Shown piece by piece: positions 11,984 to 35,505 of a stretch of 64,000 nt of DNA. Source of the DNA: Mailhella sp. (GTDB lineage: Bacteria; Desulfobacterota; Desulfovibrionia; Desulfovibrionales; Desulfovibrionaceae); assembly GCA_017940105.1 (NCBI GenBank), contig JAGAZG010000168.1:1136-65135 (forward strand), given 5' to 3'. Position 1 is the first letter of the stretch. Each line of letters opens with the position of its first letter. Below the pieces are notes generated by a model. That model saw only the letters and a list, made by a program, of their open reading frames with translations, had not been told where the DNA came from and made no database searches. The translations under genes were made by a program, and so were the position numbers.

Positions 11984-11993
11984 TACGAAAATG

Positions 11994-12030
11994 AACCCCG
12001 CAGTTGACCAAAGCCTTGACTGCGGGGTTT
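11994..12030 (+). terminator. Putative intrinsic terminator
   Basis: AACCCCGCAGT...ACTGCGGGGTTT hairpin. Confidence 0.55.
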
Positions 12031-12049
12031 GTAATCAGGAGACGCAAGT

Positions 12050-14418: not shown

Positions 14419-14665
14419 TGGCCGTGACCGACTTCAATGAGAAGCTGATGGAATTTTGGCGGTGCTTGCAGGACATGGCCATCGAGCTGTATCAGAGATT
14501 TGTTCGTGCGTATCGAGAGATAAAGCGGATAATTGAGGCAATGCCGCTGTGGGAAGCAGACCTAAGAAACCAGATACTGCGAAAAGCCAAGTACCTGCGA
14601 CGCATGGCGCACAGCAAGCGGCATCGTCGCAAGCGAAAGAAACCATTGCACAGGAGGAAAAGGAA

Positions 14666-15304
14666 ATGAGGATTGTAACCCCAAGCATTGAAATTGTGAC
14701 CCCGCTTGACGGCAATGCCGTCGTAAAGCACATTGAGCGCTGCGGACGTGTTTGCTATAAGTCCGAGGACAGAATTATTGACGGTTCTGCTCAGAAGTTT
14801 ATCAAAGCCATTATCGACTGCGGGCATGAGTCGGTGCTGGAACATTTCAGCATCACCGTTAAGTTCATTGTTGACCGTGGTGTGTCGCATGAAATCGTGC
14901 GGCACAGACTGGCATCCTATTCCCAGGAAAGCACCCGCTATTGCAACTATTCCAAGGGCGAGTTCGGTTCGGAAATCACAGTGGTAAAGCCGCCGTTTTT
15001 CGACGTGGGCGATGCCGGGTATGTATGCTGGAAAGCTGCTTGCGAAGAAGCTGAGGAAGCCTATTTCGCCCTGCTCAACATCGGCTGCACACCGCAGGAG
15101 GCTCGGAGTGTACTGCCCAACAGCTTGAAGACTGAGTTGTATATGACTGCGAACCTTCGCGAATGGCGGTGGTTCTTCCGCAAACGTGCTGCGCCTGACG
15201 CTCATCCGCAGATGCGGGAGGTCGCTTATCCCTTGCTTGCGCAGATGAGCAATATGATACCAGGTGTGTTCGATGATTTGGGAGATTGCCATGACAAACC
15301 TTGA
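14666..15304 (+). CDS. thyX: FAD-dependent thymidylate synthase
   Basis: GHESVLEH, VSHEIVRHRLASYSQESTRY, ARSVLP, NLREWR. Confidence 0.95.
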   Translation: MRIVTPSIEIVTPLDGNAVVKHIERCGRVCYKSEDRIIDGSAQKFIKAIIDCGHESVLEHFSITVKFIVDRGVSHEIVRHRLASYSQESTRYCNYSKGEFGSEITVVKPPFFDVGDAGYVCWKAACEEAEEAYFALLNIGCTPQEARSVLPNSLKTELYMTANLREWRWFFRKRAAPDAHPQMREVAYPLLAQMSNMIPGVFDDLGDCHDKP

Positions 15305-15626
15305 CAAGTTCATAGAGGTCATGAACGCGACATTCGATGCTCACTTCAAGCCCGAAAATATGAAGCTCATGTGTACGCCCTGTGGCGTGTTGAAGCAGGG
15401 CAGACACGCCTGCAACCATTTCAACTGCCTTAGCTGCGAAAGCTGGTGGCGCAGGGAATACAAGCCCCCGAAGGGAGGTGGTCGCAATGGAACCGACAGA
15501 AGCTCAGATTAGTTATGCCAAGGACTTGATGGCGAAGCTAGGCTACACCGAGGATGACTTGGAAGTTGATTTTGAATATATGACCCGCGCAGAAGTGTCG
15601 GAATTGATTGATGAATTGAAGGAGGA

Positions 15627-15890
15627 ATGGGGCGAATGAGAGAGTTGCCGAAAGCCGGAGAAACGTGGCGGCATTTCAAGAACCACGATTATCGCGTCAT
15701 TGCCTGTCCTGTATTCCATACGGAGACTGACGAACGCATGATTTGTTATCAGGCTATGTACGGCGCTGAGGGCATCTATGTACGTCCCCTTGCGATGTTT
15801 ATGAGCGAGGTTGACCGCAAGAAGTATCCCAATGCGCCACAGAAATACCGTTTCGAGAAAGTGGAGGCTGATGAACCAAATGGGAATTGA
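15627..15890 (+). CDS. DUF1653-family protein
   Basis: WRHFKNHDY...HTET...YQAMYG...VRPLAMFMSEVD. Confidence 0.85.
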   Translation: MGRMRELPKAGETWRHFKNHDYRVIACPVFHTETDERMICYQAMYGAEGIYVRPLAMFMSEVDRKKYPNAPQKYRFEKVEADEPNGN

Positions 15891-16101
15891 AACTATGATG
15901 GCTTTACTGACAGTCATATCATTGCTGGCGGCGGGCACTACATGGGTATTCGCCTGGAAGATAAACCATCAGTGGTCTGACTTCATCGACAAGCAAAATG
16001 AAGATTGGGCAAAATTATGCACCCGGCTGAATGACGAATGGTTTAAGTTATACCAGACGATTTCAGAAAAGAATGCAACCGAAAATCGAGAAAGTGAGTG
16101 A

Positions 16102-16422
16102 TTGAGCATGGGGGTAATGAGAGAACGCCCATCAAGACCGAAGACAGATGAATCTGCTGTAAATAAGCTGTACCCTCAGGACACCGAGCCGAATGAGTAT
16201 CGCTATACCTCCCCTGCTTGGCTTGATGCCATTGCAGAAGGGCTGACCAAGGGAGCCGTGAAGCATCCCGGCGAGACATGGCGACAGATACCTGCTGACG
16301 AGCATCTTTCCCGTGCCATGCGGCACATCAACCTGTACCGCATGGGCGACCGCTCCGAGCCTCATCTGGTGAACGCCAGTATGAGGTTGATGATGGCGTT
16401 TGAGGTCAGCCAGCATGAGTAG
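16102..16422 (+). CDS. dATP/dGTP diphosphohydrolase-like (DUF5664) protein
   Basis: GAVKH...W......HLSRAMRH...EPHLVNA..RLMMA pattern. Confidence 0.65.
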   Translation: MSMGVMRERPSRPKTDESAVNKLYPQDTEPNEYRYTSPAWLDAIAEGLTKGAVKHPGETWRQIPADEHLSRAMRHINLYRMGDRSEPHLVNASMRLMMAFEVSQHE

Positions 16423-16608
16423 ACCAACGCCAAGGCAGCTTGCTTATATCGCCAAAATCGAGGAATACCTTGGAATCATGTTCCTGGGCAACACCAAGAT
16501 GGATGCAACCTCGTGGCTGCACGACTATGCTCCGATTTATGAGCGGGAAATGTGGCTGCGATCACTGAACCATGATGCAGAGCTGGAAGCCGCTGATGCC
16601 AGAAGGGA

Positions 16609-17082
16609 TTGGTGAGTATGAAGAAAGATGAATTGATGCCCTGCCCGTTATGTGGTAGTCAGCCTGTCCTTGATGAAGTGAAGCCCCATACGCATTCCGA
16701 ATGGTTGAAAAAGGAGCTTCCCGACCTGCCGGATTCCCACGGCGAATGTTTCGTGGAATGCTGGAACTGCTCATGCGCAGTTGCAGCTCCGACAAAGAAG
16801 CAAGCCGTGGCATTGTGGAACAACCGCAAAGGATTCGTGGGCGTGGATGACTTCACCGTGATGATATTCGCTCTGCGGTATGCAGTGAACCGGCTCTCCT
16901 ATGCGCCTGGGCTGGTTTGCGATTACCTTCGGGACAGGCTCCCGCTCCTGAACAGCAATCAGAAAGAAATGCTGGTTAAGGAACTGAAGGATAAGCTGAA
17001 GTACAGGGAATGCGCTGATGACATCGCAGAGCATTATGTGAAGAAGCTATTAGCGGAGGTGGAGAAACAGGATGGAAAATAA
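16609..17082 (+). CDS. Lar-like zinc-finger protein
   Basis: LMPCPLCG...VECWNC...AVALWNNR. Confidence 0.65.
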   Translation: MVSMKKDELMPCPLCGSQPVLDEVKPHTHSEWLKKELPDLPDSHGECFVECWNCSCAVAAPTKKQAVALWNNRKGFVGVDDFTVMIFALRYAVNRLSYAPGLVCDYLRDRLPLLNSNQKEMLVKELKDKLKYRECADDIAEHYVKKLLAEVEKQDGK

Positions 17083-17314
17083 TGTTATTGACCTGACAAA
17101 AAAAATGATGGAGGAAAGCAGCTTCGGAATTGTCTCTTGCAAGCACGACAGCGGAATAGCTGTGGCGGTCAAGGGCAACCCTCCGCAGATTGCTTTCGCG
17201 ATTGCCTTGCTCATAAAGAATCTGCACGAGGAAGGCAAAGTACCGCTGAAGGAATTCGGCAGCATGATAAACGATGCTATGGCCATGATGCTTGAGGAGG
17301 GAGTCAAGATATGA
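17072..17314 (+). CDS. Hypothetical protein
   Basis: 80 aa, coupled in operon. Confidence 0.6.
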   Translation: MENNVIDLTKKMMEESSFGIVSCKHDSGIAVAVKGNPPQIAFAIALLIKNLHEEGKVPLKEFGSMINDAMAMMLEEGVKI

Positions 17315-17721
17315 AGAAGGTATATATCTGCTCGCGGTATCGCGCTGATGCGAGGCATACGGTTCAGGAGAATATCGACCGTGCCTATTTCGCCTGTGGG
17401 TGGGCGCTCTCGCATGGCTATGCGCCATTTGCCCCACATCTTATCTACCCCCACTGCCTTGATGACAACGACCCTGATGAAAGGAAGCTGGGCATTGAGG
17501 CGGGGCTTGCGTTCCTGGCCGATTGCGATGAAGTCTGGCAATGGGGAGCCACGGTGTCAGAGGGCATGGCAAAAGAGCTTGCCATGGCAAAGACGTGGAA
17601 CATCCCCATCAAGGTATTCAATAGCATCGGCATTCCGAAAGACCGCTGGAATCGGGAGGAAGAAGAATGCAGCATGACCGCAAAATCATTTTATCCGTCG
17701 GCAGCAATCGCCGGAGCGTAA
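17311..17721 (+). CDS. DUF4406/nucleoside deoxyribosyltransferase-like protein
   Basis: KKVYICSRY...PFAPHL...CDEVW...SEGMAKE. Confidence 0.7.
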   Translation: MKKVYICSRYRADARHTVQENIDRAYFACGWALSHGYAPFAPHLIYPHCLDDNDPDERKLGIEAGLAFLADCDEVWQWGATVSEGMAKELAMAKTWNIPIKVFNSIGIPKDRWNREEEECSMTAKSFYPSAAIAGA

Positions 17722-20078
17722 GCTGGCAGCCGCAGACCATGATGCTGTCGGAGTTCTATGAAAAGCTCCGTATTCCCAGCCGTTCCACGGAGACGATGGC
17801 TGAGTACCTTGCCCTGAAAAAGTCCGAGCAGGACGACAAGAAGGACATTGGCGGGTTCGTGGCGGGCAGCCTCTCCGGCGCCCGCCGCAAAGCCGGGGCG
17901 GTTACGGGGCGTGACCTCATCACGCTGGACTTCGACAACATCCCGCCGGGAGGCACGGAGGATGTGCTGCGTCGTGTGGAGGGACTTGGGTGCGGGTACT
18001 GCATCTACTCCACACGCAAGCACTCCCCCACCACTCCCCGGCTCCGCATCCTGCTGCCATTCGACCGTTCAGCATCGGCGGACGAGTACGAGCCAGCCGC
18101 CCGCTACATGGCGGCGGCCATTGGCATGGAGTTTGCCGACCCGACCACGTTCGAGGCATCACGCCTGATGTACTGGCCAAGCTGCTGCGCGGACGGCGAA
18201 TACGTCTTCACTTATGAGGATAAGCCCATGCTGTCTGTGGACGGTCTTCTCGATGCCGTCACGGAGAAGTACGGCGACTGGAAGGACGTGACGAACTGGC
18301 CACAGGTTCCCGGCTCGGAAAACGCCTATCGCAAGCTCGCGACAAAGCAATCAGATCCCGTGACAAAGGCTGGCATCATCGGGGCGTTCTGCCGGACTTA
18401 TGACATCTACACCGCAATGGAATCATTTCTCCCCGGCATCTATGCACCGGTGGACAATATGCCTGGACGGTATACCTATCTCGGCGGCAGTACCACGGGC
18501 GGGGCCGTTATTTATGACAATGGACTGTTCCTTTACTCGCACCACTCCACTGACCCTTGCAGCGGAAGGCTGGTCAATGCGTTCGACCTCGTGAGGCTTC
18601 ACAAGTTCGGGGACGCAGATGATGATGCCGGGGCAAACACCCCGGCGAACCGCCTCCCATCCTATCAGATGATGTGCGAGCTTGCCGTTGCGGATGCCAA
18701 GGTATCGAGGCAGCTTGCCAAGGAACGGGCAGAATCAGCAGTCAGCGACTTCGGCCAGCTTGCCACCCACGAGGATGACGAAGGCAGCCTGGACTGGACA
18801 ACGGAGCTGGAACTGAACAGCCAGACCGGAGCCATCAAGGCGACCATCGACAACATTTGGCTGATACTGGAAAACGACCCGAACCTGCGTGGCAAGTTCG
18901 CATTGAACGAGTTCGCAGGGCGCGGGGAAATCCTCGGCGAATTGCCGTGGAGTCCATTTGCGGGCCGCAGGGCGTGGGCTGACAATGACAATCAGGGCCT
19001 GTACTGGTATTTCGAGAAGGTTTATAAGATTACAGGCAACGGGAAGATTGACGGCGCCCTGTCGCTCCACAGTGAGAAGCATAAGTTCAACGACGTAAAG
19101 AACTATCTCGGCGGGCTGCAATGGGATGGCGTTCCGAGGCTGGACACGCTTTTGGTGGATTACCTCGGCGCGGCGAACAGCAACTACGTGCGGGCCGTTA
19201 CACGAAAGGCGTTCACGGCGGCAGTAGCACGGGCCATGACCCCCGGCTGCAAGTATGACACGATGCTGATTCTTTCTGGGCCGCAGGGCCTCGGCAAGTC
19301 CACGTTCCTTGACCGCATGAGCCGTGGGTGGTTCAACGATGGCATCCGCACCTTTGAGGGCAAGGAAGCCAGCGAGCTGTTGCAGGGTGTATGGCTCATT
19401 GAGATACAGGAACTGGATGCTTTCCGCAAGACGGATGTGTCCCGTATCAAGCAGTTCCTGAGCCTTCGGTATGACCGCTTCAGGGCTGCCTATGGGCGGC
19501 ACGTCAAGGACATCCCCAGGTGCTGCGTGTTTTTCGGAACGACGAACACAACCGAGTTCCTGCGGGACAGGACAGGCAATCGTCGGTTCTGGCCCGTGGA
19601 TGTCGGGGTATTCCAGCGGAAGAAGGACATCTGGAAACAGCTCAATCAGGAAATCGACCAGATTTGGGCAGAGGCGGTCATGCGGTGGCGCATCGGCGAA
19701 AGCCTCCACCTTATCGGCGATGTGGAAAATGAAGCAAGGGTCGTGCAGGAAGAACACAGAGAAGCCGGAAACCTCGAAGGACTGATAGCGCAGTACCTTG
19801 AAAGGCCGGTGCCAGAAGACTGGCAGAAATGGTCTTTGGAAAAGCGCAAAATGTTCCTGAACGGTGAAGGAACCGCAGAAAACCTCGTTCCCCGTGACAG
19901 GGTATGTGCCTTGGAGATATGGTGCGAGGTACTGAACGGCCAGATGAAAGACCTGTCGTACACAACGACCACAGAGATAAACGACATTTTAAGGTCGATG
20001 CCAATGTGGGAAAAGACGTCGAATGGACTGCGGTTTGGATACTGCGGATACCAGCGGGGATTTCGCAGAAAGCATTGA
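17667..20078 (+). CDS. Primase-helicase, VirE/virulence-associated E family
   Basis: N-terminal prim-pol (TLDFD, YSTRKH, PRLR); Walker A GPQGLGKST; TGNRRFWP. Confidence 0.92.
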   Translation: MQHDRKIILSVGSNRRSVSWQPQTMMLSEFYEKLRIPSRSTETMAEYLALKKSEQDDKKDIGGFVAGSLSGARRKAGAVTGRDLITLDFDNIPPGGTEDVLRRVEGLGCGYCIYSTRKHSPTTPRLRILLPFDRSASADEYEPAARYMAAAIGMEFADPTTFEASRLMYWPSCCADGEYVFTYEDKPMLSVDGLLDAVTEKYGDWKDVTNWPQVPGSENAYRKLATKQSDPVTKAGIIGAFCRTYDIYTAMESFLPGIYAPVDNMPGRYTYLGGSTTGGAVIYDNGLFLYSHHSTDPCSGRLVNAFDLVRLHKFGDADDDAGANTPANRLPSYQMMCELAVADAKVSRQLAKERAESAVSDFGQLATHEDDEGSLDWTTELELNSQTGAIKATIDNIWLILENDPNLRGKFALNEFAGRGEILGELPWSPFAGRRAWADNDNQGLYWYFEKVYKITGNGKIDGALSLHSEKHKFNDVKNYLGGLQWDGVPRLDTLLVDYLGAANSNYVRAVTRKAFTAAVARAMTPGCKYDTMLILSGPQGLGKSTFLDRMSRGWFNDGIRTFEGKEASELLQGVWLIEIQELDAFRKTDVSRIKQFLSLRYDRFRAAYGRHVKDIPRCCVFFGTTNTTEFLRDRTGNRRFWPVDVGVFQRKKDIWKQLNQEIDQIWAEAVMRWRIGESLHLIGDVENEARVVQEEHREAGNLEGLIAQYLERPVPEDWQKWSLEKRKMFLNGEGTAENLVPRDRVCALEIWCEVLNGQMKDLSYTTTTEINDILRSMPMWEKTSNGLRFGYCGYQRGFRRKH

Positions 20079-20118
20079 CGAGATGTTTCCAAAGGGGCGA
20101 AACTTCGACTTTGCAGAA

Positions 20119-20372
20119 CAATTTAGGCACGAAAGTCTAAGTTTAGGCACGAAATTCAACCCATTGTTTCGGGCTAGTTTGTTATCAAGTTTCAGGGCTT
20201 GTTTCGGGGTTGTTTCGGCGTGAAGCCTTGATATATCTATACTTATAGTTATATTGAAACATTGAAACATTTAATCTTAATAGAATAGAAGAATAGGTGT
20301 TTTAGAGAATATAGGTAAATAATGTATATGCCTAATGTACCTAATATACCTATATTGAGTAATATAAGGATT
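20119..20372 (+). repeat. AT-rich element (candidate replication origin), copy 1
   Basis: TTTAGGCACGAAA twice, GAAACATTGAAACATTTAATCTTAATAGAATAG; inverted homolog at 48873-49130. Confidence 0.75.
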
Positions 20373-20600
20373 TGGAGGTGCTGTTTCGCCATGATTCCGG
20401 TTGAAAAATACGTCGCTGAGGCCGACAAAATCGAGTGGCTTGAAGGGCTGCTGAAGTCGCACGGCTCGATGCTGCGCGAGACGATTTTCGAGGAGGGTGC
20501 GAAGTTGGGCTTTTCGCGGCAGAGCATAAAAAACGCCCGCCGCTTCGAGGGGTCACGCATCGTGGCCCGTGAGGGCTTTTGGATTTGGCGAGGTTAGGCT

Positions 20601-20924
20601 ATGCTTGAGAAACAGATTGAACGTCGCCTGGTCGATGGCGTGAAGAAGCTCGGCGGGATGTGCATGAAATTCGTCAGCCCCGGTACGCCGGGTGTCCCTG
20701 ACCGAATCATCGTGACCGCCACGGGCAGAGTGATTTTTGCGGAACTGAAGACCGAGACTGGCCGCCTGACGAAATTGCAGCGGCACACGGTCGAGCAGTT
20801 GAAGAAACGCGGGGCTGACGTGAGGGTTGTCAAAGGCTCTGATGAGGTCAAAGCCCTGCTGGCTGAGATTGAGAACGATGATTGCATACGGAGACTGAAG
20901 GCGGTGATGGACAATGAAATTTAA
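20601..20924 (+). CDS. VRR-NUC domain nuclease
   Basis: EKQIE...KFVSPG..GVPDRI...FAELK...Q. Confidence 0.9.
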   Translation: MLEKQIERRLVDGVKKLGGMCMKFVSPGTPGVPDRIIVTATGRVIFAELKTETGRLTKLQRHTVEQLKKRGADVRVVKGSDEVKALLAEIENDDCIRRLKAVMDNEI

Positions 20925-22293
20925 GCCGTACCCCTACCAGCAGTTCTGCATCGACTATGTGATCCGCAATGTTGCTGTTGGTTTGCTGCTGGATATGGGA
21001 TTGGGCAAGACGGTCATCACGCTGACCGCCCTCCATGACCTCCGTTACAATCGGTGGGAGGTATCGAAGCCGCTCATCATAGCACCGAAGAAAGTGGCCG
21101 AGGCCACCTGGACAGCTGAGGCTAAGAAATGGGAGCACCTGCGGATGATGCGGGTTGTTCCCGTCCTTGGCACGGTGAGCCAGCGATTGAAAGCCCTTGC
21201 CACTCCCGCCGATGTATATGTCATCAATCGCGAAAATACGCAGTGGCTGGTCGAGCATTTCAAGAACTCATGGCCCTTTGACATGGTGGTGCTGGATGAA
21301 AGCTCGTCTTTCAAGAACAGCCAGAGCAAGCGGTTCAAGGCGCTCCGCCTTGTCCGCTCCCGCATCCGGCGCATCGTGGAACTGACGGGTACGCCAGCAA
21401 GCAATGGACTGGAAGACCTGTGGGCGCAGATTTTTCTGCTGGACGGGGGTCAGCGGCTCGGCAAGACTCTTGGTGCTTACCGCGACAGGTACTTCGTCCC
21501 CGGCAGGAGAAACCAGACGACGATATTCAATTATGAGCCGAAGGACGGCAGCTTCGAGATGATTAAGCGGGCCATCAGCGACATCTGCATCAGCATGAAG
21601 GCCAGCGACTACATCAGCTTGCCGGACATCGTTTACAACGAGGTTCCCGTGGCTCTCGATGCCAAGGCGAAGAAAGCCTATGAGCAGTTGGAGCGTGAGC
21701 TGCTTTTGGAAGTGAACGACGAGACGATTACCGCTGGCAGTGCTGGCGTCCTGACTGGCAAGCTGTTGCAGCTTTGCAACGGTGCTGTTTACAGCGAGGA
21801 TAGGAACGTCGTGCCAGTCCATGACTGCAAGTTGGATGCCTTCATGGAACTGGTCGAGCAGTTGAACGGGCAGCACGCTCTCGTGTTCTACGACTTCAAG
21901 CATGACCGTGACCGGCTGCTTGATGCGCTGGCAAAGACGAAGCTGCGGGTCAGGGTCTACTCGCAAGCGCAGGACGAGGCAGACTGGAATGCCGGGTTAA
22001 TCGACATCCTTCTCGCCCACCCTGCCAGTTGCGGTTATGGCTTGAATTTGCAGCAGGGAGGCCATCATGCCGTTTGGTTTGGGTTGACTTGGAGCCTTGA
22101 GCAGTATGAGCAAGCAAACAAGCGTCTGCACCGTCAAGGGCAGGAGCATCCAGTGGTCGTTCATCATCTAGTCGTGCAGGGCGGGATGGATGAATCTGTC
22201 ATGGAGGCTCTGAAGAACAAGGGAGATATGCAGGAAGCCCTGCTTGCCGCCCTCAAAGCCCGCATAAGCAGATTGTGCAGTAAATGCAGGTAG
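20914..22293 (+). CDS. SNF2-family helicase
   Basis: DMGLGKT, VLDESS, LTGTP, GLNLQ, QANKRLHRQGQ. Confidence 0.93.
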   Translation: MKFKPYPYQQFCIDYVIRNVAVGLLLDMGLGKTVITLTALHDLRYNRWEVSKPLIIAPKKVAEATWTAEAKKWEHLRMMRVVPVLGTVSQRLKALATPADVYVINRENTQWLVEHFKNSWPFDMVVLDESSSFKNSQSKRFKALRLVRSRIRRIVELTGTPASNGLEDLWAQIFLLDGGQRLGKTLGAYRDRYFVPGRRNQTTIFNYEPKDGSFEMIKRAISDICISMKASDYISLPDIVYNEVPVALDAKAKKAYEQLERELLLEVNDETITAGSAGVLTGKLLQLCNGAVYSEDRNVVPVHDCKLDAFMELVEQLNGQHALVFYDFKHDRDRLLDALAKTKLRVRVYSQAQDEADWNAGLIDILLAHPASCGYGLNLQQGGHHAVWFGLTWSLEQYEQANKRLHRQGQEHPVVVHHLVVQGGMDESVMEALKNKGDMQEALLAALKARISRLCSKCR

Positions 22294-22302
22294 AAAAGGA
22301 GG

Positions 22303-22785
22303 ATGCCCATGCAGAAGGAAGAAATTGCTGAAATAGCCCGTATTGCGGCGGTTGAGGCGTTGGCCAAGCGGGATAGCATCGTCAAGGAGGAGCTTGATGC
22401 CAGATACCATGATGTGAAGCTCTTGATGAAGAATTACCGCAAGCTGAAAGCCCACTATGCGCACGTCTCGCCGGAAGCGTTGGAGGTCAACGCCATCTGC
22501 TCGTTGAAGCGGAAGACTGGCTTGATGATGAGCCATGTGGACAGGATGCTGTCAGCATACAAGGCCCTTTGCGAGAGTGCCGTGGAACGTCACGAGGCGA
22601 TGCGATGGGATGCTTTGTATATGCGGTATATTTCTGACGAGCGGCTGACCATTGACGACATCGCCGCCCGCCTGGGCGACGTTGACCGCCGCACGTTCTA
22701 TCGGTATATTGACAGGGCTTTCGAGGATATGGCGGTGCTGCTGTTCGGCATCGAAGCCATCGGGACTTGGAAGCCGAAGAAATAG
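22303..22785 (+). CDS. ArpU/RinA-like late transcriptional regulator
   Basis: C-terminal sigma-4-like HTH (LYMRY...IAARL..DRRTFYR); last gene of replication operon. Confidence 0.65.
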   Translation: MPMQKEEIAEIARIAAVEALAKRDSIVKEELDARYHDVKLLMKNYRKLKAHYAHVSPEALEVNAICSLKRKTGLMMSHVDRMLSAYKALCESAVERHEAMRWDALYMRYISDERLTIDDIAARLGDVDRRTFYRYIDRAFEDMAVLLFGIEAIGTWKPKK

Positions 22786-22787
22786 TT

Positions 22788-22817
22788 GCCGGGGGCTTTT
22801 CAGCCCTCGGCATTTTT
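22788..22817 (+). terminator. Intrinsic terminator
   Basis: GCCGGGGGCT-TTTC-AGCCCTCGGC followed by ATTTTT. Confidence 0.65.
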
Positions 22818-22825
22818 CTGCTTTC

Positions 22826-23027
22826 GTGTGCTTTCCCGGTGAACATAGCCGCCCTCTCCTTGCTTTTCCGAAGCCCGCAATCCCTTACCACACAAAGGCT
22901 CAGAGAATATCGCTCCTACGGCGCAAAAATAATTTTCGTATATTCTTCTTTAGGCTATCGCAGGAAAACTGACCAGAGGGAAACCAGAAGGCATACAGAG
23001 AGCAGAAAATTTCGGCCCGTGGACATT
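22826..23027 (+). repeat. ~200-bp dispersed non-coding element, copy B
   Basis: Reverse-complement homolog of 1706-1908 and 28876-29078. Confidence 0.9.
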
Positions 23028-23070
23028 CCGACTTTCAGTAGAATTCTTGGAAAATAATTCGTAAACATGA

Positions 23071-23098
23071 TTGACTTATACGGTTAGCGTGTTAAGAT
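23071..23098 (+). promoter_or_regulatory. Repeated promoter
   Basis: TTGACT-tatacggttagcgtgt-TAAGAT. Confidence 0.75.
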
Positions 23099-23140
23099 GA
23101 AGACAAGATAAATCATAACACCTGAACAGAACGAAAGGGG

Positions 23141-23338
23141 TTGGACGACATGACGAAGCGGGAAAGATTTGCGAAAGCACTGTGGGAAACCTTCAGGTAT
23201 GAGCTGCGCAAGGATGACAATATAAGATTTGTTCGCGGGTATGCTGATGAGAATATAGCTGATGTGGTTATCACACGGGCGGACGGATGCAAGGCAACCG
23301 TGGATGCTTATGACATCCAGCTTGGCTGCTTCCAGTGA
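23141..23338 (+). CDS. Small hypothetical protein
   Basis: AAAGGGG RBS; lies between promoter repeat and hammerhead 3. Confidence 0.7.
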   Translation: MDDMTKRERFAKALWETFRYELRKDDNIRFVRGYADENIADVVITRADGCKATVDAYDIQLGCFQ

Positions 23339-23342
23339 TGAA

Positions 23343-23406
23343 AGCCGAAACCAGCCGAAAGGCTGGTCAGCCGGAATTGACCTACCGGCTCTGATGTTGG
23401 CAGGTT
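23343..23406 (+). ncRNA. Hammerhead ribozyme, type II (copy 3; CUGAUGU core variant)
   Basis: Same stems as copies 2 and 4, but A9 replaced by U. Confidence 0.85.
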
Positions 23407-23424
23407 GATAGCAGAAAGGGGCAG

Positions 23425-23724
23425 ATGAAAATGTTCGTAAATACGTTTTTCCGTGTGGAGCCATCGTACAACAGGAAGGGCGAGCTGGTGACGACGAAGG
23501 TGCATGGCTATGACTTGTCGGCAAGTGGTGTGAGGATGCTTGACCTTGACGGCTACGCCCCGATTTTGGAAAAGTTCGGCGGCTGGTTCAACAAGAAGTC
23601 CCGCTGCATTTCCATTCCCGCAGAGGTGTCCCGCCTGGAACTCGCAAACTGGCTGGAATTCTACTATGGCGGCGAGGGCGATAATCCGAATGGCCAGCTG
23701 AATGCAGTGTATGTTGGAATTTAA
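23425..23724 (+). CDS. Small hypothetical protein
   Basis: 99 aa, AAAGGGG RBS just after the ribozyme. Confidence 0.75.
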   Translation: MKMFVNTFFRVEPSYNRKGELVTTKVHGYDLSASGVRMLDLDGYAPILEKFGGWFNKKSRCISIPAEVSRLELANWLEFYYGGEGDNPNGQLNAVYVGI

Positions 23725-23757
23725 GTAGAATTTCTTGAAAAATTTTCGTAAACATGA

Positions 23758-23785
23758 TTGACTTATACGGTTAGCGTGTTAAGAT
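23758..23785 (+). promoter_or_regulatory. Repeated promoter
   Basis: Identical core to 23071-23098. Confidence 0.75.
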
Positions 23786-23837
23786 GAAGACAAGATAAAT
23801 CACAACCACCTGAACGGAACGAAGGGAGACGATTGAG

Positions 23838-24008
23838 ATGTCGGCAAACATGAAGCAGTTCGTAGAGTATTGTGAAGCGTATGATCAGACTGGAAGCAAG
23901 AAATTTCGGGATGAGGCTATTCGGATTTACTGGATGCTGACGGGTACGACGCTCGCAGCAGATGAATTCGAGGACAGGTACTTGGATTTGATGCACGAAA
24001 ATTGGTAA
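23838..24008 (+). CDS. Small acidic protein (56 aa, not in ORF track)
   Basis: AAGGGAG RBS; MSANMKQFVEYCEAYDQ...DEFEDRYLDLMHENW; stop abuts hammerhead 4. Confidence 0.65.
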   Translation: MSANMKQFVEYCEAYDQTGSKKFRDEAIRIYWMLTGTTLAADEFEDRYLDLMHENW

Positions 24009-24071
24009 GCCGAAACCAGCCGAAAGGCTGGTCAGCCGGAACTGACCTACCGGCTCTGATGATGGCAGGTT
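24008..24071 (+). ncRNA. Hammerhead ribozyme, type II (copy 4)
   Basis: Canonical CUGAUGA/GAAA core, GUC at 24031-24033, perfect stems I and III. Confidence 0.92.
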
Positions 24072-24097
24072 AAGCAGAACGAAGGGAGCTGGCCGAA

Positions 24098-24349
24098 ATG
24101 ACGAAGATGGAATATGCGATGAAGCAGAACAGCCGTGAGATTGAGCAGGTTGAGAAGAAAATCATGGACAGCCTTGAGGCGATCAAGCGCAGCACCGAGC
24201 GGGCCTTGGCAGCAGAGAACAAAGCCTTCTCGACGGACATTCCGAGCATTGCTTGCTATGCGGCAGAACTCAAGATGGCGCAGGAAAAGTTGGAGCTTTT
24301 GTATCAGCATCGTCAGACGCTTGAAATGCTGGCAGCCGATGAAGATTGA
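24098..24349 (+). CDS. Small coiled-coil hypothetical protein
   Basis: 83 aa, AAGGGAG RBS after the ribozyme. Confidence 0.7.
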   Translation: MTKMEYAMKQNSREIEQVEKKIMDSLEAIKRSTERALAAENKAFSTDIPSIACYAAELKMAQEKLELLYQHRQTLEMLAADED

Positions 24350-24365
24350 TGAGAGGGCGGCAGAG

Positions 24366-24659
24366 ATGAAGAACGTAAGCGAATTTGACATCAGTCTGAA
24401 GAAGTTGTCCTGGGACAAGCTGTTCGACAGCGAGGAGGAATTGGTTGAGGCTATGATGGGCTGTCCGGTAGAACGGACTGCCAGCCGACATGGACTTGTG
24501 CCGAAGGGTTATGAGTATATCGCCGGGTTCCAGCGGTACTATGCCAAGAACCGCTGCCTGACCGACAAGCAGATGACCCAGCTCAAAAGGCTGGCGAAGT
24601 CTGTGTATGTCGGCATCAAGGGCATGAACGTGGGTGGCTACATCGCAATGTGCTGGTAA
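24366..24659 (+). CDS. Hypothetical protein
   Basis: GAGAGGG RBS before MKNVSEF; followed by terminator at 24663-24687. Confidence 0.65.
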   Translation: MKNVSEFDISLKKLSWDKLFDSEEELVEAMMGCPVERTASRHGLVPKGYEYIAGFQRYYAKNRCLTDKQMTQLKRLAKSVYVGIKGMNVGGYIAMCW

Positions 24660-24740
24660 GCTGGCGGGCCTTGTTGCCCGCCTTTTTCTGTGTCTTGCGC
24701 CTGTGACGCTATCGTGTTATGATGGTAGCATAGAAAGGAT

Positions 24741-24959
24741 GTGGTCGGAATGGCACAGAGCAAGGCGCACATGGCGGCGACCAGCCGTTATGAGCAGAAG
24801 GCATACGACAAGCTGTTGATACGTCTGCGCAAGGATGCAGATGTGAACGGCAGCACTGTCCGCGCCCATGCAGAGTCGCGCGGTGAAAGTATGCAGGGCT
24901 TTGTAGTCAGGGCCATCACGGAGACGATGGCACGAGACAGAGCCGGGATAACAGAATGA
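24741..24959 (+). CDS. Ribbon-helix-helix-like DNA-binding protein
   Basis: KAYDKLLIRLRK...AHAESRGESMQGFVVRAITETM; own promoter TTGCGC-17-TATGAT (24695-24723) and terminator 24962-24989. Confidence 0.7.
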   Translation: MVGMAQSKAHMAATSRYEQKAYDKLLIRLRKDADVNGSTVRAHAESRGESMQGFVVRAITETMARDRAGITE

Positions 24960-25230
24960 GCAAAGACCCGCAGAGATGCGGGTCTTTTTGTGTCCGCGTT
25001 TTCCCCAAAATGGCATCGCGCATCGCATAGCGTCAGCCCTCTCAAATCAAGCGCCCAGAGGCGCATCGCTTCTCAGAGCTTCTCCGCAGCCCTCGAATAC
25101 AATCCCCTTCGCAAGCTGCGTAAATCCGCTCTCAGCGAGTACCAGAGGCTTGCATTTTGGTGATTCAGTAGTCCTGGGTGGTCAGTTGCGACTGTGAGTA
25201 AAATTTCTTGAAAACTTTTCCGAAAAACTA

Positions 25231-25258
25231 TTGCAATATACAGATAGCGTGTTAAGAT
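25231..25258 (+). promoter_or_regulatory. Repeated promoter
   Basis: TTGCAA-tatacagatagcgtgt-TAAGAT, same core as 1172-1199. Confidence 0.75.
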
Positions 25259-25310
25259 GAAGACAAGATAAAGAACACCACTTGAACAGAACGAAAGGGG
25301 GTCAGACGAT

Positions 25311-25562
25311 ATGGAAAACGCAACGGAAAAGGCCGCCCGGCTCCAACGCGGGGACAGCTTGTACTGGTACTGCATCATGACCGTCTACCACGACGATGGC
25401 AAGATAGAACGCAGCATCGTTCGGGATGACAGGACAGGCGCACCGTTCATCGTCAAGTCCTATGAGAAGCCGTTGGACGAATGTTACAGCCGGAAAGCGG
25501 CGGCAGTTTACTACACCTACTGCCACGGGTACAAGGAAGCGTTGGCCTGTTTGGCCCGCTGA
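25311..25562 (+). CDS. Small hypothetical protein
   Basis: 83 aa between promoter repeat and hammerhead 5. Confidence 0.7.
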   Translation: MENATEKAARLQRGDSLYWYCIMTVYHDDGKIERSIVRDDRTGAPFIVKSYEKPLDECYSRKAAAVYYTYCHGYKEALACLAR

Positions 25563-25563
25563 T

Positions 25564-25627
25564 AGCCGAAACAGCCCAGGCGGGCTGTCAGCCGGAGATG
25601 ACCTACCCGCTCTAATGATGGCAGGTC
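25564..25627 (+). ncRNA. Hammerhead ribozyme, type II (copy 5; CUAAUGA variant, probably impaired)
   Basis: GAAA-CAGCCC-AGGC-GGGCUG-UC; C-C mismatch in stem I; G5A. Confidence 0.75.
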
Positions 25628-25675
25628 GGGAAGGAGGTTTGATGAATTATTTTCGGAAAAATTTCCGAAAAACTA

Positions 25676-25704
25676 TTGACTATAACGACTCACAGGGCTA
25701 GAAT
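25676..25704 (+). promoter_or_regulatory. Orphan sigma-A-type promoter
   Basis: TTGACT-17-TAGAAT with no downstream plus-strand ORF in this orientation. Confidence 0.65.
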
Positions 25705-25846
25705 GAGATTATAGGGAAAGAAAAATTCCCGAAAAGCTCAGAGAAGTCCTCGGCAGCGGGTTGGTCAAGCTGCCCAGCACAACTGATAGCCAAGATTGGC
25801 CGGTGGCGACGGCTGGCCCGCATCAAGAGGCGGGAGTACATTATAG

Positions 25847-25882
25847 GCAAAGTCAGCAGACTATCTCAACGGTTCTATACAC
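25847..25882. other. Putative recombination site, right inversion junction
   Basis: ATCTCAACGGTT at 25863-25874; arm 25847-25862 matches arm 9110-9125 at 12/16. Confidence 0.7.
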
Positions 25883-26094
25883 TCCCTCTCGCCACTGACG
25901 TGGCTTTTTCTTTGCCTGAAGTCATATCGGGCTTGGCAGGTCTGGCCAGCGAAAACTGTTTCACGGAAGTAAATCCCGTCTTCCAGCCATTCGCGCTTCA
26001 CTGTCTCCCCTTCCCTCAGCTCCGGCAATTTGCTCTTTGCCAATGCGGATAGTTCTGACGCCACTGCAAGCAGTACATCTGAAGCACCCATCAT
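25861..26094 (-). CDS. 77-aa ORF, probable N-terminal half of the split cell-wall hydrolase gene
   Basis: Ends ...EPLR-stop exactly at the shared core, which reads PLR-W in the 9127 ORF. Confidence 0.6.
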   Translation of the reverse strand: MMGASDVLLAVASELSALAKSKLPELREGETVKREWLEDGIYFRETVFAGQTCQARYDFRQRKSHVSGERECIEPLR

Positions 26095-26309
26095 GCGTCC
26101 TCCTCATCATCGTCGCCAGTTTCGTCAACGAGAAGTTCATCAACTGTGCAGCCATAGAGCTTGGCTATCTCAACCAGCTTGTCTGCTCGTGGCTTTGCTA
26201 GTCCGCGTTCCCACTTGCTGACTGCCGAAGGCACCACGCCGAGAATCTTTGCGACCTCGTTCTGCGTGGGGATAACGCCTTGCAGCCGACGCTTTTTCAT
26301 TATGTTCAT
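26091..26309 (-). CDS. Cro-like XRE HTH regulator
   Basis: TQNEVAKILGVVPSAVSKWERG...P; divergent from repressor. Confidence 0.88.
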   Translation of the reverse strand: MNIMKKRRLQGVIPTQNEVAKILGVVPSAVSKWERGLAKPRADKLVEIAKLYGCTVDELLVDETGDDDEEDA

Positions 26310-26368: not shown

Positions 26369-26460
26369 ATCTTAACACTATAATTCATATTTGTCAACTG
26401 TAATTCAATAAGTTATGCGGAGGTTTTTTGCTTGACCATGTGAATTAAATTCATTATAAT
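26369..26460. promoter_or_regulatory. Divergent lysis/lysogeny promoters with candidate operator
   Basis: Minus TTGACA-17-TAAGAT (26397-26369); plus TTGACC-17-TATAAT (26432-26460); palindrome TGAATTAAATTCA at 26441-26453 and further AATTCA half-sites. Confidence 0.75.
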
Positions 26461-26475: not shown

Positions 26476-26910
26476 GTGGTGCTAACCATGAAAGACTTCG
26501 GCTCAAGACTCAGAAAGCTCCGCCGCGATGCAGAGATGTCACAAGCCGAGCTTGCTGAACAACTCGGTGTTGTGCCTTCGGCTGTCGGCAAATATGAACG
26601 TCTTGCAGATTCATACCCCAGCGTAGAAATTCTGCTGAAGATTGCTGACTACTTCAATGTCAGCACAGACTACCTCCTGCGCGGCATACAGCCCATGGCC
26701 ATCGTGGAAAACAACATCAGCGGGGAGCTTACCAACAGCCCGCTCATTCAGGCCAACCACGGCAACGTGCTGGTCAACGACCGCAGCCTGTCGCCGGAAG
26801 CCATTGAGCTTTTGCACATCTATGAGTCCCTGTCCGGCAGGGAACGTCTCAAACTGCTCAATTTTGCCGTGGATATGGAAGAAAAGAGCAAGGAAGGTGC
26901 ATCGACATGA
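26476..26910 (+). CDS. CI-like XRE HTH repressor
   Basis: RLRKLR...SQAELAEQLGV...YER...IADYFNVSTDYLL. Confidence 0.9.
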   Translation: MVLTMKDFGSRLRKLRRDAEMSQAELAEQLGVVPSAVGKYERLADSYPSVEILLKIADYFNVSTDYLLRGIQPMAIVENNISGELTNSPLIQANHGNVLVNDRSLSPEAIELLHIYESLSGRERLKLLNFAVDMEEKSKEGAST

Positions 26911-32289: not shown

Positions 32290-32466
32290 TTATTCCTTCG
32301 GAATCTTGGACTTTACTTCCTCGCAGAACGCGAAGAACTCCTCATAGGCTTCCGGCTTGGTGTCCTTCTGCCGAAGAATTGCAATCTGGTCGTCAATGCT
32401 GTAACGAGTATTGATGACGGCTGCAATTTCCTGTTCACGGGTCAGTTTGCTTTCCTGAGTTTCCAT
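32290..32466 (-). CDS. Small phage protein (58 aa, not in ORF track)
   Basis: GGAGG RBS; METQESKLTREQEIAAVINTRYSIDDQIAILRQKDTKPEAYEEF...; terminator hairpin at 32232-32272. Confidence 0.65.
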   Translation of the reverse strand: METQESKLTREQEIAAVINTRYSIDDQIAILRQKDTKPEAYEEFFAFCEEVKSKIPKE

Positions 32467-33692
32467 GTCTGTTTCCTCCGTTTCTTTATAACGCAGACCG
32501 GGGCGGACACCCCAAACAGCGTCTTAAATAACACATCCATACGTCTGGCGGCTATCACACCGCCACGACGGATTGCATGGCCTTTCCACGATGCGTGGGA
32601 ATTCGCCGCTTCTGCCAGCGTCAGCTTGCCCTCAGCCACCCTCGCAACGAACTTCTTCAGCTTCCTTCTTTGACGAATGATGCTGTCCCTCGCCATGCGT
32701 CGCTTAACCTTGCCTGTTTCTGTCAAGGTTAGCAACACTTTCAAAAACCGAAGGCCATGCCGCAACTTGACGATATGCGTCTTCTTCTGGTTGACCTCTA
32801 TCCCATAGAAGGAACAAGCCCCTACCAGTTCCCGGACAGCTTTTCTCGCCTCGGCTTTTGTGCGAAACAGCATATAGCCGTCATCCATGTAGCGTCCGTA
32901 AAAACGAACACGCATCCGCTCCTTGACGAAGTGGTCGATGGCTGACGGGTATGCCACTGCCGTTATCTGCGATACTTGGCTTCCTAAACCAAGGCTTCGC
33001 CCCGTATACCCTTCCAGCACATTTTCACGCCTGACACGTTTGTAGGCGATACGGCTGTTCGGGTGTCCGAATGGCAGGACAAACTGCTCCAACAGATGCA
33101 GGATGCGTGAGTCAGAAAACTCTTTCCCATACATCCGAAAGCAATAACTGTGCAGGATGCGGTCAAAGAACTTCGAGAAGTCAAAGACCACGGCCCAGCC
33201 ATCGTTCGAGAAACCATTCTTCCGATAGAACTGCTGCAAATGCGCTGTCAGCCGATCAAGCGCCTGGTCAACGCCTCGTCCTTCGAGGCAAGCACCGTTG
33301 TCATAGATAAGACCCCGGCGCAGCATGGGGACGAGAACATTGTCGCAAGTTGCTCTCTGGATAACCCGCTCCGAGAAATGGATGCTGCGTATGTGACGCA
33401 CTTTGCCACGTTCCTTGGTGTCGAACTCCACGAAGCCCTTCGTGATGTCCCGTCCACGTTCCAAGGCTTCTCTCGCAAGCTCCATATTCCTGAGAAGGTT
33501 CATCTGGTATCGCTGGACACTTGCTTTCCAAGTGACGTTCCTTCTGGACTTCCTGTTTGCCGCGAAAAGAGCACGGTAGCTTGTAATGCTCGAAAAATCG
33601 TCGCATCGTGCATATCTTGCCCTTTTCTTTTCCTCTCTCGCGGCCTTTCGGCGCTGGTATCTTCCTTCGCGCCGCCGCTCAAGCGATGTCAC
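32442..33692 (-). CDS. DGR reverse transcriptase
   Basis: FDFSKFFD, GLGSQVSQ, YGRYMDD; adjacent TR, avd and VR. Confidence 0.95.
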   Translation of the reverse strand: MTSLERRREGRYQRRKAAREEKKRARYARCDDFSSITSYRALFAANRKSRRNVTWKASVQRYQMNLLRNMELAREALERGRDITKGFVEFDTKERGKVRHIRSIHFSERVIQRATCDNVLVPMLRRGLIYDNGACLEGRGVDQALDRLTAHLQQFYRKNGFSNDGWAVVFDFSKFFDRILHSYCFRMYGKEFSDSRILHLLEQFVLPFGHPNSRIAYKRVRRENVLEGYTGRSLGLGSQVSQITAVAYPSAIDHFVKERMRVRFYGRYMDDGYMLFRTKAEARKAVRELVGACSFYGIEVNQKKTHIVKLRHGLRFLKVLLTLTETGKVKRRMARDSIIRQRRKLKKFVARVAEGKLTLAEAANSHASWKGHAIRRGGVIAARRMDVLFKTLFGVSAPVCVIKKRRKQTWKLRKAN

Positions 33693-33968
33693 GATATAGT
33701 TGCCCCCTTGGGCCTCGTGTACGGCAAACCGTCCCTATGGGGCGTGTGCGTCCTAGAACAGCCGCGTAGCGTCACCGGGCATGGAGCAGAGGCAGGTACG
33801 CACCGGAATCCTCTGCCATGCACGAAAGCGTCCGCCCGGACGCATCACGAGGCATATTTACCCTTTTGCTTGGGAAGGTCATGCGCTCCTTCCAATGATT
33901 TCTTTGAATGGTACTGCGTTCGGCCCTTTGCGGGCTTACTTGGCCTGACCCAGCCTTTCGACTATCTT

Positions 33969-34102
33969 GGAATCACAGCGGCGCCCGAATGCCCGTGTTG
34001 CTGGCGTTGTTGTTGTTGGCGTTGCCGTTGTTGTTGACGTTGCAGAAGTTCGTGGCATTCGTCCGGTTAGCAGACAACTCCCACCAGTTGCACCGGGAAC
34101 CA
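33969..34102 (-). repeat. DGR template repeat (TR)
   Basis: 134-nt ungapped match to the VR; AAC-rich; all 20 mismatches at TR adenines. Confidence 0.96.
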
Positions 34103-34139
34103 ACCAGCAAAAATGCAGCGCATGGCCTGTATGCCGTTT

Positions 34140-34559
34140 TCACGGCTGAAATTGCTTGATGAACTTGGCACTGTCCGCCTTGCGCCAGCCCCGAAGGAGC
34201 TGGGCTTCCTTGACAAGCAGCTCGGTCACAGACTGGAACTTGTCAGGACTGACGGAAAGCGTCGTAAGCATGAACTGAAGGAGCTGAAATATCTGCTCCA
34301 CCGTGATGATCGCCTGTGTCTGGTAGTCCCTGCGCATCTCCGCTTCCCGCAAATTCTGCGGGTAGATGCTGTTCGCTGCTGTGATGTTGTCCATCAGGCG
34401 AATGACCCTCTCCACCATCGGAAAGGTGAAGACAGGCCGCCACCTCTTTGGCACGATTTTCTCACTCATCACGAACCGTGTCAGCTCCGCCCGTATCAAG
34501 GTCGCAGTATGGTAGAACTCCAAATGGCTCTCACTTCGGTTTCGCTTCAACACGCTCAT
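34140..34559 (-). CDS. avd: DGR accessory variability determinant (Avd-like)
   Basis: 139-aa helical protein between target and TR, ends LLRGWRKAD. Confidence 0.82.
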   Translation of the reverse strand: MSVLKRNRSESHLEFYHTATLIRAELTRFVMSEKIVPKRWRPVFTFPMVERVIRLMDNITAANSIYPQNLREAEMRRDYQTQAIITVEQIFQLLQFMLTTLSVSPDKFQSVTELLVKEAQLLRGWRKADSAKFIKQFQP

Positions 34560-34585
34560 AGTTCTGCTCCTCCGTTCTTGGTCGA

Positions 34586-34618
34586 TACTAACCGCCCCAC
34601 ATGGGGGCGGGAGTTAGT
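34586..34618 (-). promoter_or_regulatory. DGR target-recognition hairpin downstream of VR
   Basis: GC stem CCGCCCC/GGGGCGG with outer ACTAA/TTAGT, just after the target stop codon. Confidence 0.7.
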
Positions 34619-34620
34619 GA

Positions 34621-35505
34621 TTACCCGATACGGAAGCACAGCGGCGCCCGAACGCCCGTGTAGCTGGCGTAGTTGGCGTTGGCGCCGCCGGAGTAGTCGA
34701 CGAAGCAGAAGTACGCGGCACTCGCCCGGTAAGCAGACAACTCCCACCAGTGGCACCGGGAACCACCGTTGCCATCGCCCTTGATGATGTGCTTCGAGCC
34801 ACCGTAGAAGATGGGGTACTGGAGATTGCAGCCGCCACCGCCAGTGCCGAATCCCGGCTGGCTCCAAGTGTGATGCCCGAATACCTCAACCTCAGTGGGA
34901 AGCCAAAGTTTGCCAGCATTTGCCCAAGACCAACTCGTATCCTCAGATACCGCTCCACCTGCTGAGTAGCGTTCCTCAAGCAGAGCACGTTTGGTGATAA
35001 TATAAGGCTTAAGGTCGGTCGGCAGCTTGGCATAGATGCCATTCGTCTCATCGTTAAGCGTCTGATACAACTCGCTTGCCAGCCACGGATGTTTCACCGT
35101 TGCCGTGCCGTTGTTGGTATCAGACGAATTCATACGCTTGCCGCCAGCAAGGCAGTCACGGCTGATAAAGTCGATATGCCCGCCAATCTCAGTGTCACCA
35201 CACTTACGATAGGGGTTGATACCAGCTACTTCCATGACTACTTTCTCGCCCGTGGTGAGCGTAATGGTCTTGAAGTCACCAATGTGGATGCCCTCAAAAT
35301 CCTCTGCACGAGCGCGACCATTGATGCTTGCCCAGCTCTCGGTCAGCTCCTTGCCGTAAGGCACACCGCCCTGCAAGAAGATTTCCTTCATGAACTCTGC
35401 GGCTTCTGTACCGCTGAGGCGACCAGTCCCGTTGGCCATATCTACGATGAAGCCGTCGGTCTTTTTGAAGCCGGTCTTGCTCGGAAGTTCGTTTGTCTTA
35501 ATCAT
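34621..35505 (-). CDS. DGR target protein (likely C-type-lectin-fold receptor-binding protein)
   Basis: C-terminal VR WWELSAY...GVRAPLCFRI; located at the end of the tail gene cluster. Confidence 0.9.
   Translation of the reverse strand: MIKTNELPSKTGFKKTDGFIVDMANGTGRLSGTEAAEFMKEIFLQGGVPYGKELTESWASINGRARAEDFEGIHIGDFKTITLTTGEKVVMEVAGINPYRKCGDTEIGGHIDFISRDCLAGGKRMNSSDTNNGTATVKHPWLASELYQTLNDETNGIYAKLPTDLKPYIITKRALLEERYSAGGAVSEDTSWSWANAGKLWLPTEVEVFGHHTWSQPGFGTGGGGCNLQYPIFYGGSKHIIKGDGNGGSRCHWWELSAYRASAAYFCFVDYSGGANANYASYTGVRAPLCFRIG
34632..34765 (-). repeat. DGR variable repeat (VR)
   Basis: Adenine-specific differences from the TR. Confidence 0.96.

Follow-up and report, generated by a model that had tools for sequence, protein, structure and literature searches.

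Excision of the skin element restores sigK. Invertases of the Gin, Cin and Hin type are small, act at symmetric and reversible sites, and flip tail-fibre or promoter segments. In halovirus phiH, a regulatory segment of ~12 kb (the L-segment) is invertible and flips between insertion sequences. Mycobacteriophage BPs has integration-dependent immunity, with a single attP inside its repressor gene and a tyrosine integrase. Tripartite ICEs carry several att pairs in one element and use three recombinases.

Published work on related systems describes the restoration of spsM by SprA/SprB of SPbeta (PMC4191935) and intragenic invertons, which are bacterial genes flipped between inverted repeats (PMC10028968). 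Serine integrases are reported to require complementary central dinucleotides, and sites arranged head-to-head lead to inversion (PMC4111918). A large serine recombinase (LSR) is counted as multi-targeting by Durrant when one 90%-identity cluster hits over three clusters of target genes (PMC10083194).

At the locus described here, the hydrolase gene of a prophage is split by a serine-recombinase-type inversion and has a full frame with a start in one orientation only. The first-pass annotation of this DNA had proposed such a split of the phage's own gene. That account missed two things: the arm of the inversion sites also occurs at the prophage ends, and two whole operons are disconnected when the segment inverts.

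Inversion sites and the invertible segment

The DNA analysed (the window; 64,000 nucleotides) spans positions 1136-65135 of a 70,360-bp contig (G000:C145) from an incomplete genome and holds a myovirus-type prophage with terminase, portal, capsid and tail sheath genes. Prophage genes lie on the minus strand except for cI, the gene for the 466-aa recombinase and the block 9131-25865 (Table 1). The terms attP, attB, OFF and ON are labels of the present analysis. In the OFF state, the 559-aa gene stands back-to-back with the hydrolase body; in the ON state, cro, the 77-aa gene and the hydrolase are in line.

Table 1. Features of the prophage locus, in window coordinates unless stated otherwise
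Feature	Position	Strand	Remarks
Left prophage end, same arm as inversion sites	308-329	-	central AA (minus strand) at 309-308
559-aa Cys-rich gene, head of outer operon	7407-9086	-	
Left inversion site (attL/attR-type)	9109-9133	+	arm 9109-9128; central GA 9129-9130; 12-bp shared core 9122-9133
Hydrolase_2 (SleB-like) body lacking an initiation region	9124-9606	+	hydrophobic helix, Pro-rich linker, invariant LxGEC motif
Invertible segment, 16.7 kb	9131-25865	.	OFF orientation in the window
Conserved 83-aa ORF immediately inside right site, function unassigned	25311-25562	+	in 19/24 loci, some loci being too short for the ORF
Promoter-like site in segment, facing right site	25676-25704	+	consensus 10/12; presumed function
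Right inversion site	25845-25878	-	arm 25846-25865; central GA (minus strand) 25867-25866
77-aa ORF after cro, predicted recombination directionality factor (RDF)	25861-26094	-	stop 4 nt past crossover
Terminator-like hairpin in 3' end of 77-aa ORF, opposite strand	25891-25914	+	
cro-like HTH gene	26091-26309	-	HTH_3
Promoter-like site 5' of cro	26369-26397	-	consensus 10/12; presumed function
Promoter-like site 5' of cI and recombinase	26432-26460	+	consensus 11/12; presumed function
CI-like HTH repressor gene	26488-26910	+	HTH_3
Large serine recombinase, 466 aa	26907-28307	+	Resolvase PF00239, Recombinase PF07508, Zn-ribbon PF13408; PHROG integrase
Right prophage end, outside window	contig 69543-69564 (window-equivalent 68408-68429)		central TT

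Each inversion site has one conserved arm, and the arms of the two sites are mutually inverted copies. The exact 12-mer AACCGTTGAGAT occurs at 9122-9133 (+) and at 25874-25863 (-), in inverted orientation. Because the window contains 631 exact inverted 12-mer pairs, this word alone does not exceed chance expectation; what lends it significance is that arms and central GA are conserved at the left and the right site and that relatives show the flipped arrangement. At positions 21-22 from the arm, GA was observed at the left and the right site alike in all 31 pairs (one from the window and 30 from relatives; 24 distinct), which are kin rather than independent samples. The core common to both sites varies from 3 to 15 bp across lineages. 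Cores were located by arm anchoring; longest-common-word matching mislocated most of them. Excluded from the pair counts were 15 of 57 hydrolase loci that lack the phage module and have their own starts, 6 of 36 records lacking a recombinase match, ON loci and short fragments.

When joined, the two arms form an attP-like site of ~42 bp, which is intact in a circular ON genome (G035). The remaining halves, one holding the RBS and start of the hydrolase and the other its coding sequence, together make an attB-like site within a gene of the phage itself. On the cro side of the right site in the window, the hydrolase frame contains the codons TTG (25869-25867) and ATA (25878-25876); relatives have their ATG start at the position aligned with this ATA. 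On this side, a scripted search located a start codon (ATG, TTG or GTG) in frame and with at least a 4/6 Shine-Dalgarno match in 27 of the 31 pairs; inspection by eye adds an ATG in one more pair and an ATT in three.

The segment encodes the hydrolase body, a DUF2800 protein, an ssDNA-binding protein, DNA polymerase A, Thy1, a VapE-like protein, VRR-NUC, an SNF2 helicase and small ORFs. Its size is 11-17 kb family-wide, and among 26 relatives measured, 25 have the hydrolase motif 10.5-14.6 kb from the 77-aa stop, the remaining one wrapping round a contig end. The 559-aa protein outside the segment carries a C-terminal run of CxxC repeats, is ~50-66% conserved in relatives, and has no match in Pfam or PHROG.

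Promoters are represented here by consensus matches only, of which 22 weak internal ones lie in the segment (11.6 in shuffles) and none lies between the 559-aa gene and the hydrolase body in the OFF state. A hairpin comparable to that in the 77-aa ORF, together with a T-run, is present in 17 of 20 distinct sequences. In the OFF state, the hairpin at 25891-25914 would stop transcripts leaving the segment from the promoter-like site at 25676-25704. After a flip to ON, the promoter-like site of cro (26397-26369) would read into the replication genes, and the inner site would read into the 559-aa operon. The best promoter-like match of the segment (11/12) lies at 25869-25840 (-), with its -35 box on the recombination core, and faces into the segment; a bound integrase could occlude it.

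Several further features of the window were recorded. Type II hammerhead ribozymes (Rfam) are located at 24008-24074 (+) and 1242-1308 (-), with related copies at 23342-23406 and 25563-25627, and sit in repeated promoter-like cassettes 5' of small ORFs (repeat families D1, D5, D6 and D8). A locus resembling a diversity-generating retroelement (32442-34765) comprises a reverse transcriptase (32442-33692), Avd (34140-34559), an RT-2 RNA (33692-33953) and a repeat pair (33969-34102 and 34632-34765) that is 85% identical. A dispersed inverted repeat of ~230 nt (20142-20338 and 48908-49104; 78% alike) is unlinked to the att arms, and a tRNA-Lys(CTT) lies within the prophage at 62232-62304 (-). According to sequencing-run records, the source metagenomes of the phage DNA are mostly gut, bovine, goat and sheep samples, and one RNA sequencing run matches the phage DNA (share 0.07).

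The 77-aa ORF and the hydrolase gene at the crossover

The 77-aa ORF (26094-25861, minus strand) ends in CIEPLR followed by a stop codon, and PLRW is encoded at 9124-9135 in the Hydrolase_2 frame, in agreement with the first annotation. The description of the hydrolase ORF as lacking an RBS also holds, in that the Shine-Dalgarno match is 4/6 at most for each of its five in-frame starts (9127-9196). The SleB-like assignment is made by sequence (Hydrolase_2, PF07486; 35.8 bits against a cut-off of 27). Residue E61, which we take to be the catalytic Glu, is invariant in 59 of 59 hydrolases.

The first-pass annotation went on to propose that recombination at the core creates a single 234-aa protein with a soluble N-domain. 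By coordinates this is correct for the window, where core crossover yields 702 nt, or 234 codons; as the architecture of the family it is not supported. The supposed N-domain is a stand-alone gene: in 28 of 31 pairs its stop codon falls ahead of or at the crossover, and all five clean ON loci retain that stop. Full-length homologs spanning both halves were not found: none of 120 hydrolase hits matched the 77-aa protein, none of 110 longer candidates (136-2000 aa) matched the 77-aa profile, and none of 68 representatives of the 77-aa family is fused to a hydrolase. Among these representatives, 64 are at most 100 aa long and the four longer ones have no hydrolase domain. Long matches of the profile consist of a Bro-N fusion, a 129-aa protein with no Pfam match and two repeat proteins. 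In the first of these (P0167), a 77-aa homolog is joined to a Bro-N antirepressor-like domain. Also considered as fusions were four hydrolase hits (253-266 aa), which were rejected because their N-terminal extensions are unrelated; one of these extensions corresponds, by eye, to the antisense frame of the gene upstream.

In most relatives, the junction is crossed only by the RBS, the start codon and 1-3 codons. In one cluster of 31 hydrolases, all seven of the 168-aa members examined begin with MTEM, a start that only the right site supplies. A lipobox-like N-terminus is present in 46 of the 120 hydrolase homologs, and these count against a fusion because a lipobox needs a free N-terminus.

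The 234-aa read-through frame was observed in three of 31 pairs, from the window phage, a close relative and a Schwartzia MAG prophage, which form a clade (support 97/93) spanning recombinases only ~74% identical. In these three, the hydrolase frame is offset from the centre, with the 77-aa stop 4 nt beyond it, and a stop past the crossover is found only in this clade. Together with locus L004 they make up a supported set of four (99/93). L004 is ON and has the same frame shift; its hydrolase ATG lies 11 nt before the centre in an ATGA overlap and begins a protein of 161 aa. A second protein of this frame type has 158 aa. At the position of this ATG the window has ATA, and a TTG occurs at -2. 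Locus L128, on a low-coverage contig, carries a later frameshift. Judging from the frames, a 234-aa product is expected after the flip in the window phage's clade, as a derived state, and an internal start at ATA or TTG may give the usual ~160-aa enzyme as well.

The integrase, the prophage ends and orientation in relatives

The 466-aa recombinase is the sole Resolvase-family match on the window's contig, on which no tyrosine integrase was matched; five of five phage contigs tested likewise have one Resolvase-family gene and zero tyrosine integrase matches. The enzyme has the three domains of a large serine recombinase, and its presumed sites are two-armed with complementary central dinucleotides. 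A DUF4368 domain was not found in the window recombinase. The motif YIRVST, which holds the nucleophile Ser, is invariant in 23 of 23 recombinases. Enzymes of relatives are 66-92% identical to that of the window, and the nearest one among the records reached, a close viral relative aside, belongs to a Schwartzia MAG (74% identity). Because it is the only recombinase matched, also on the five phage contigs, this protein likely catalyses attP x attB recombination on these sites.

The 77-aa protein has no match in Pfam, PHROG or GenBank phages, and its gene has none in 400 genomes of the order. Its predicted fold is a helix plus beta-meander (pLDDT 82), for which the PDB gave no match at E<=0.001 and one uncharacterised viral match was found. 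In a predicted complex with recombinase residues 150-466 the score was 0.73, compared with 0.00 for the best control, and the mark applied is reached by 116 of 157 solved pairs and 2 of 215 mismatched pairs. Prediction runs agree in at least 91% of contacts, with a partner pLDDT of at least 82. The N-terminal helix of the 77-aa protein, with 5 of 12 invariant residues among the contacts, packs on recombinase residues 336-348 and 420-449, which flank the coiled coil. Known RDFs are predicted at the DBD2/coiled-coil junction, and false positives occur among predicted RDFs (PMC12286644). Here the prediction likewise places a small element-encoded protein at this junction, and the 77-aa protein is thus the predicted directionality factor of the integrase. 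Its complex score may pass partly through likeness to the solved SPbeta integrase-RDF complex. Placement of the gene behind cro would fit expression at the time of induction.

The arm of the inversion sites recurs at both prophage ends in all seven chromosomal relatives and at both prophage ends on the window's contig, which indicates that the window phage is integrated too. There is no common host flank: eight different flanks are spread over recombinases that do not form one 90% cluster. Central dinucleotides at the prophage ends are complementary in 8 of 8 cases (TT/AA in seven, AT in one) and are never GA. Because inversion sites and prophage ends share the arm, one integrase likely performs both integration and internal inversion, the two being separated by the central dinucleotide. 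A non-integrating phage and a second integrase were also considered, and were dropped in view of the arms at the prophage ends and the sole recombinase match per phage contig. A search of 20 relatives for an empty host site gave none. Integration sites of the window recombinase family may already be included in the LSR tables of PMC10083194.

Some insertions lie in or beside other mobile elements (G036:C33:115462-121200 and 178155-180300; G032:C2:96162-98173), the neighbours being the integrase-repressor module of a second prophage and another serine recombinase. In all seven chromosomal relatives, the conserved gene closest to the left prophage end is PemK/MazF-like (1910-2305, minus strand, in the window).

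Both orientations occur among relatives. The 57 hydrolase loci comprise 36 that are OFF, 2 that are ON, 4 that are too short upstream and the 15 lacking the phage module. For the 77-aa gene, 83 of 91 loci are OFF, 5 are clean ON, 1 is aberrant and 2 end at or before the site. At ON locus L143, the upstream 515 nt are 96.5% identical to an OFF right site and the downstream 400 nt are 99.3% identical to an OFF left site, with the crossover falling within a shared TGA (3 bp). From only three identical bases at this switch we infer site-specific rather than homologous recombination. ON junctions are exact in three separate assemblies, and numerous contigs bear ON products (69 of them for one protein). 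Single contigs bridge the OFF form in several sequencing runs, and it is also present in the isolate genome of Butyricicoccus pullicaecorum DSM 23266.

Two loci end or join in unusual ways. In L114 (2200-2270), a truncated 77-aa gene is joined to the left-site arm at a different GA, reflecting either mis-recombination or an assembly error. The viral contig L192 terminates exactly at the right-site TGA, as expected where an assembly graph forks between orientations.

All eight integrated copies are OFF and none is ON. The integration state can be read for just one of the five clean ON loci. The circular genome G035 (57,656 bp, 141-bp end overlap) is ON and carries all three sites intact, namely the attB-like site and both attP-like sites, one of which is the integration site. 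Among 15 records scanned, G008, G012 and G014 are OFF with an intact integration site, and only one record with such a site is ON. Coupling of orientation to excision is therefore not strict, and a rule by which every excised phage is ON was dropped in view of these three records, which may be excised OFF circles or consensus assemblies.

For the window phage itself, the flipped joint was absent among the assembled contigs of eight runs, contigs being prone to drop rare variants. Contigs of run X5 break at 9133/9104 and 25845, exactly the points at which a 31-mer graph would fork for the flipped arm-arm junction, which provides an indirect hint of inversion in this lineage; forks matching the other flipped junction are missing from that run.

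A model of the locus and its relation to described systems

We consider it probable that the window holds an integrated prophage whose 16.7-kb replication segment, lying between serine-recombinase sites, is flipped by the sole integrase with the 77-aa factor, so that lytic genes would be locked off in the lysogen. Without a partner, the integrase would carry out two attP x attB reactions, one integrating the phage at varied host sites and one inverting the segment to OFF, and mismatched central dinucleotides would keep the two apart. In the OFF state, the hydrolase-to-helicase operon and the 559-aa operon would stand back-to-back, cut off from promoters. Upon induction, the cro promoter would drive production of the 77-aa factor, and both reactions would be reversed. 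The flip to ON would join the arms into the attP-like site and restore the RBS and start of the hydrolase; in the window phage's clade, it would also remove the 77-aa stop and open the 234-aa read-through.

We lean slightly towards a broader view, that this is a natural two-address circuit with one integrase, one RDF and two att pairs insulated by their dinucleotides. Lysogeny would insert the phage and unplug its replication and early operons, and induction would replug them, giving a DNA-level lock atop cI/cro. Fusion of the RDF to a membrane-tethered protein in one clade might add feedback.

The 77-aa ORF could instead be the N-terminal domain of a 234-aa membrane-anchored hydrolase, with the inversion serving its production. 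This appears unlikely given that the two genes are separate in 28 of 31 pairs and in all clean ON loci, that the nearest ON relative uses its own ATG (its 161-aa product being matched by the second protein of 158 aa), that no fused homolog was found, and that the 77-aa protein is predicted to bind the integrase and many hydrolases are lipobox-like (46/120). In its favour, frames match and the stop lies past the crossover in three pairs of one clade (97/93), and the ATA at the window's start position suggests that read-through may be the main route to the enzyme in this phage. Another view accepts the inversion as real and unties it from excision, with OFF also being a free, carrier or virion state and the flip occurring early in infection or as a stochastic phase switch. 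Three of four records with an intact integration site are OFF, and the many contigs with ON products point in the same direction; yet no integrated copy is ON (8/8 OFF), asymmetric attP/attB-type sites imply a directional reaction, and the OFF records with an intact site could stem from consensus assembly of populations with integration at many host sites. We regard this view as quite improbable.

It is very doubtful that a promiscuous integrase gave rise to the second site pair as a selfish or accidental by-product, with no regulatory role. Varied host targets do imply relaxed specificity, and the aberrant junction at L114 would fit a by-product. Nevertheless, the position, the GA centre, the far-side start (27/31) and the opposing terminator (17/20) are kept across recombinases 66-92% identical, and in one clade a shift of the hydrolase frame is matched by a shift of the start on the other side. 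An assembly artefact, or chance homologous recombination at the 12-bp repeat, is an extremely remote prospect and largely refuted, since sites in other lineages have only 3 bp in common, yet exact ON junctions occur in three assemblies, and since the OFF form is seen on single bridging contigs of several runs and in isolate DSM 23266. What would favour it is the abundance of exact inverted 12-mers in the window (631) and the predominance of short-read metagenome assemblies in the data.

If the integrase does lock lytic genes by inversion, the lysis-lysogeny decision gains a heritable layer of DNA rearrangement, and nature makes use of orthogonal central dinucleotides, which have so far been a tool of engineering. 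The locus also supplies a relaxed-target integrase with a candidate RDF, and prophages of this kind look rearranged or defective in annotation. B. pullicaecorum DSM 23266 is an isolate that carries such a prophage and makes a direct test possible. A phage whose integrase also inverts its own lytic or replication genes was not found in targeted searches of the open-access literature.

The locus resembles phiH in having an invertible regulatory segment (~12 kb in phiH), BPs in that recombination edits a phage gene as a lysogeny switch, and tripartite ICEs in the presence of several att pairs in one element; the ICEs differ by their three recombinases. With SPbeta and skin it shares a large serine recombinase, a small directionality factor (predicted in the present case) and the precise rejoining of a split gene. 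In those elements a host gene is restored by excision, whereas here the split gene is phage-borne, only its initiation region is moved, head-to-head sites lead to inversion, the recombinase gene lies outside the segment, and integration of the phage falls to another pair of sites.

Integrases of phiC31, Bxb1, A118 and TP901-1 have the same domain layout, an attP of ~42 bp with inverted arms, a 2-bp centre and the same predicted RDF position (PMC4111918, PMC12286644). These phages have one attP, whereas the present phage genome has two attP-like sites and an attB-like site. Engineered integrase/RDF switches also invert DNA between head-to-head sites and are insulated by differing dinucleotides (PMC4111918); they are synthetic, whereas the present arrangement is natural and acts on the phage's own lytic operons. 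As with Gin of Mu, Cin of P1 and Hin of Salmonella, inversion within a phage genome by a serine recombinase would alter which genes are expressed (PMC8987985). In contrast to those systems, the enzyme is a large integrase of 466 aa, the sites are asymmetric and share one arm and a core of 3-15 bp, and the segment carries 11-17 kb of replication genes. Multi-targeting LSRs, too, have varied host targets around a TT core; the accessible part of PMC10083194 does not describe internal inversion for them. The parts of this locus are textbook parts, but the way in which they are used is not.
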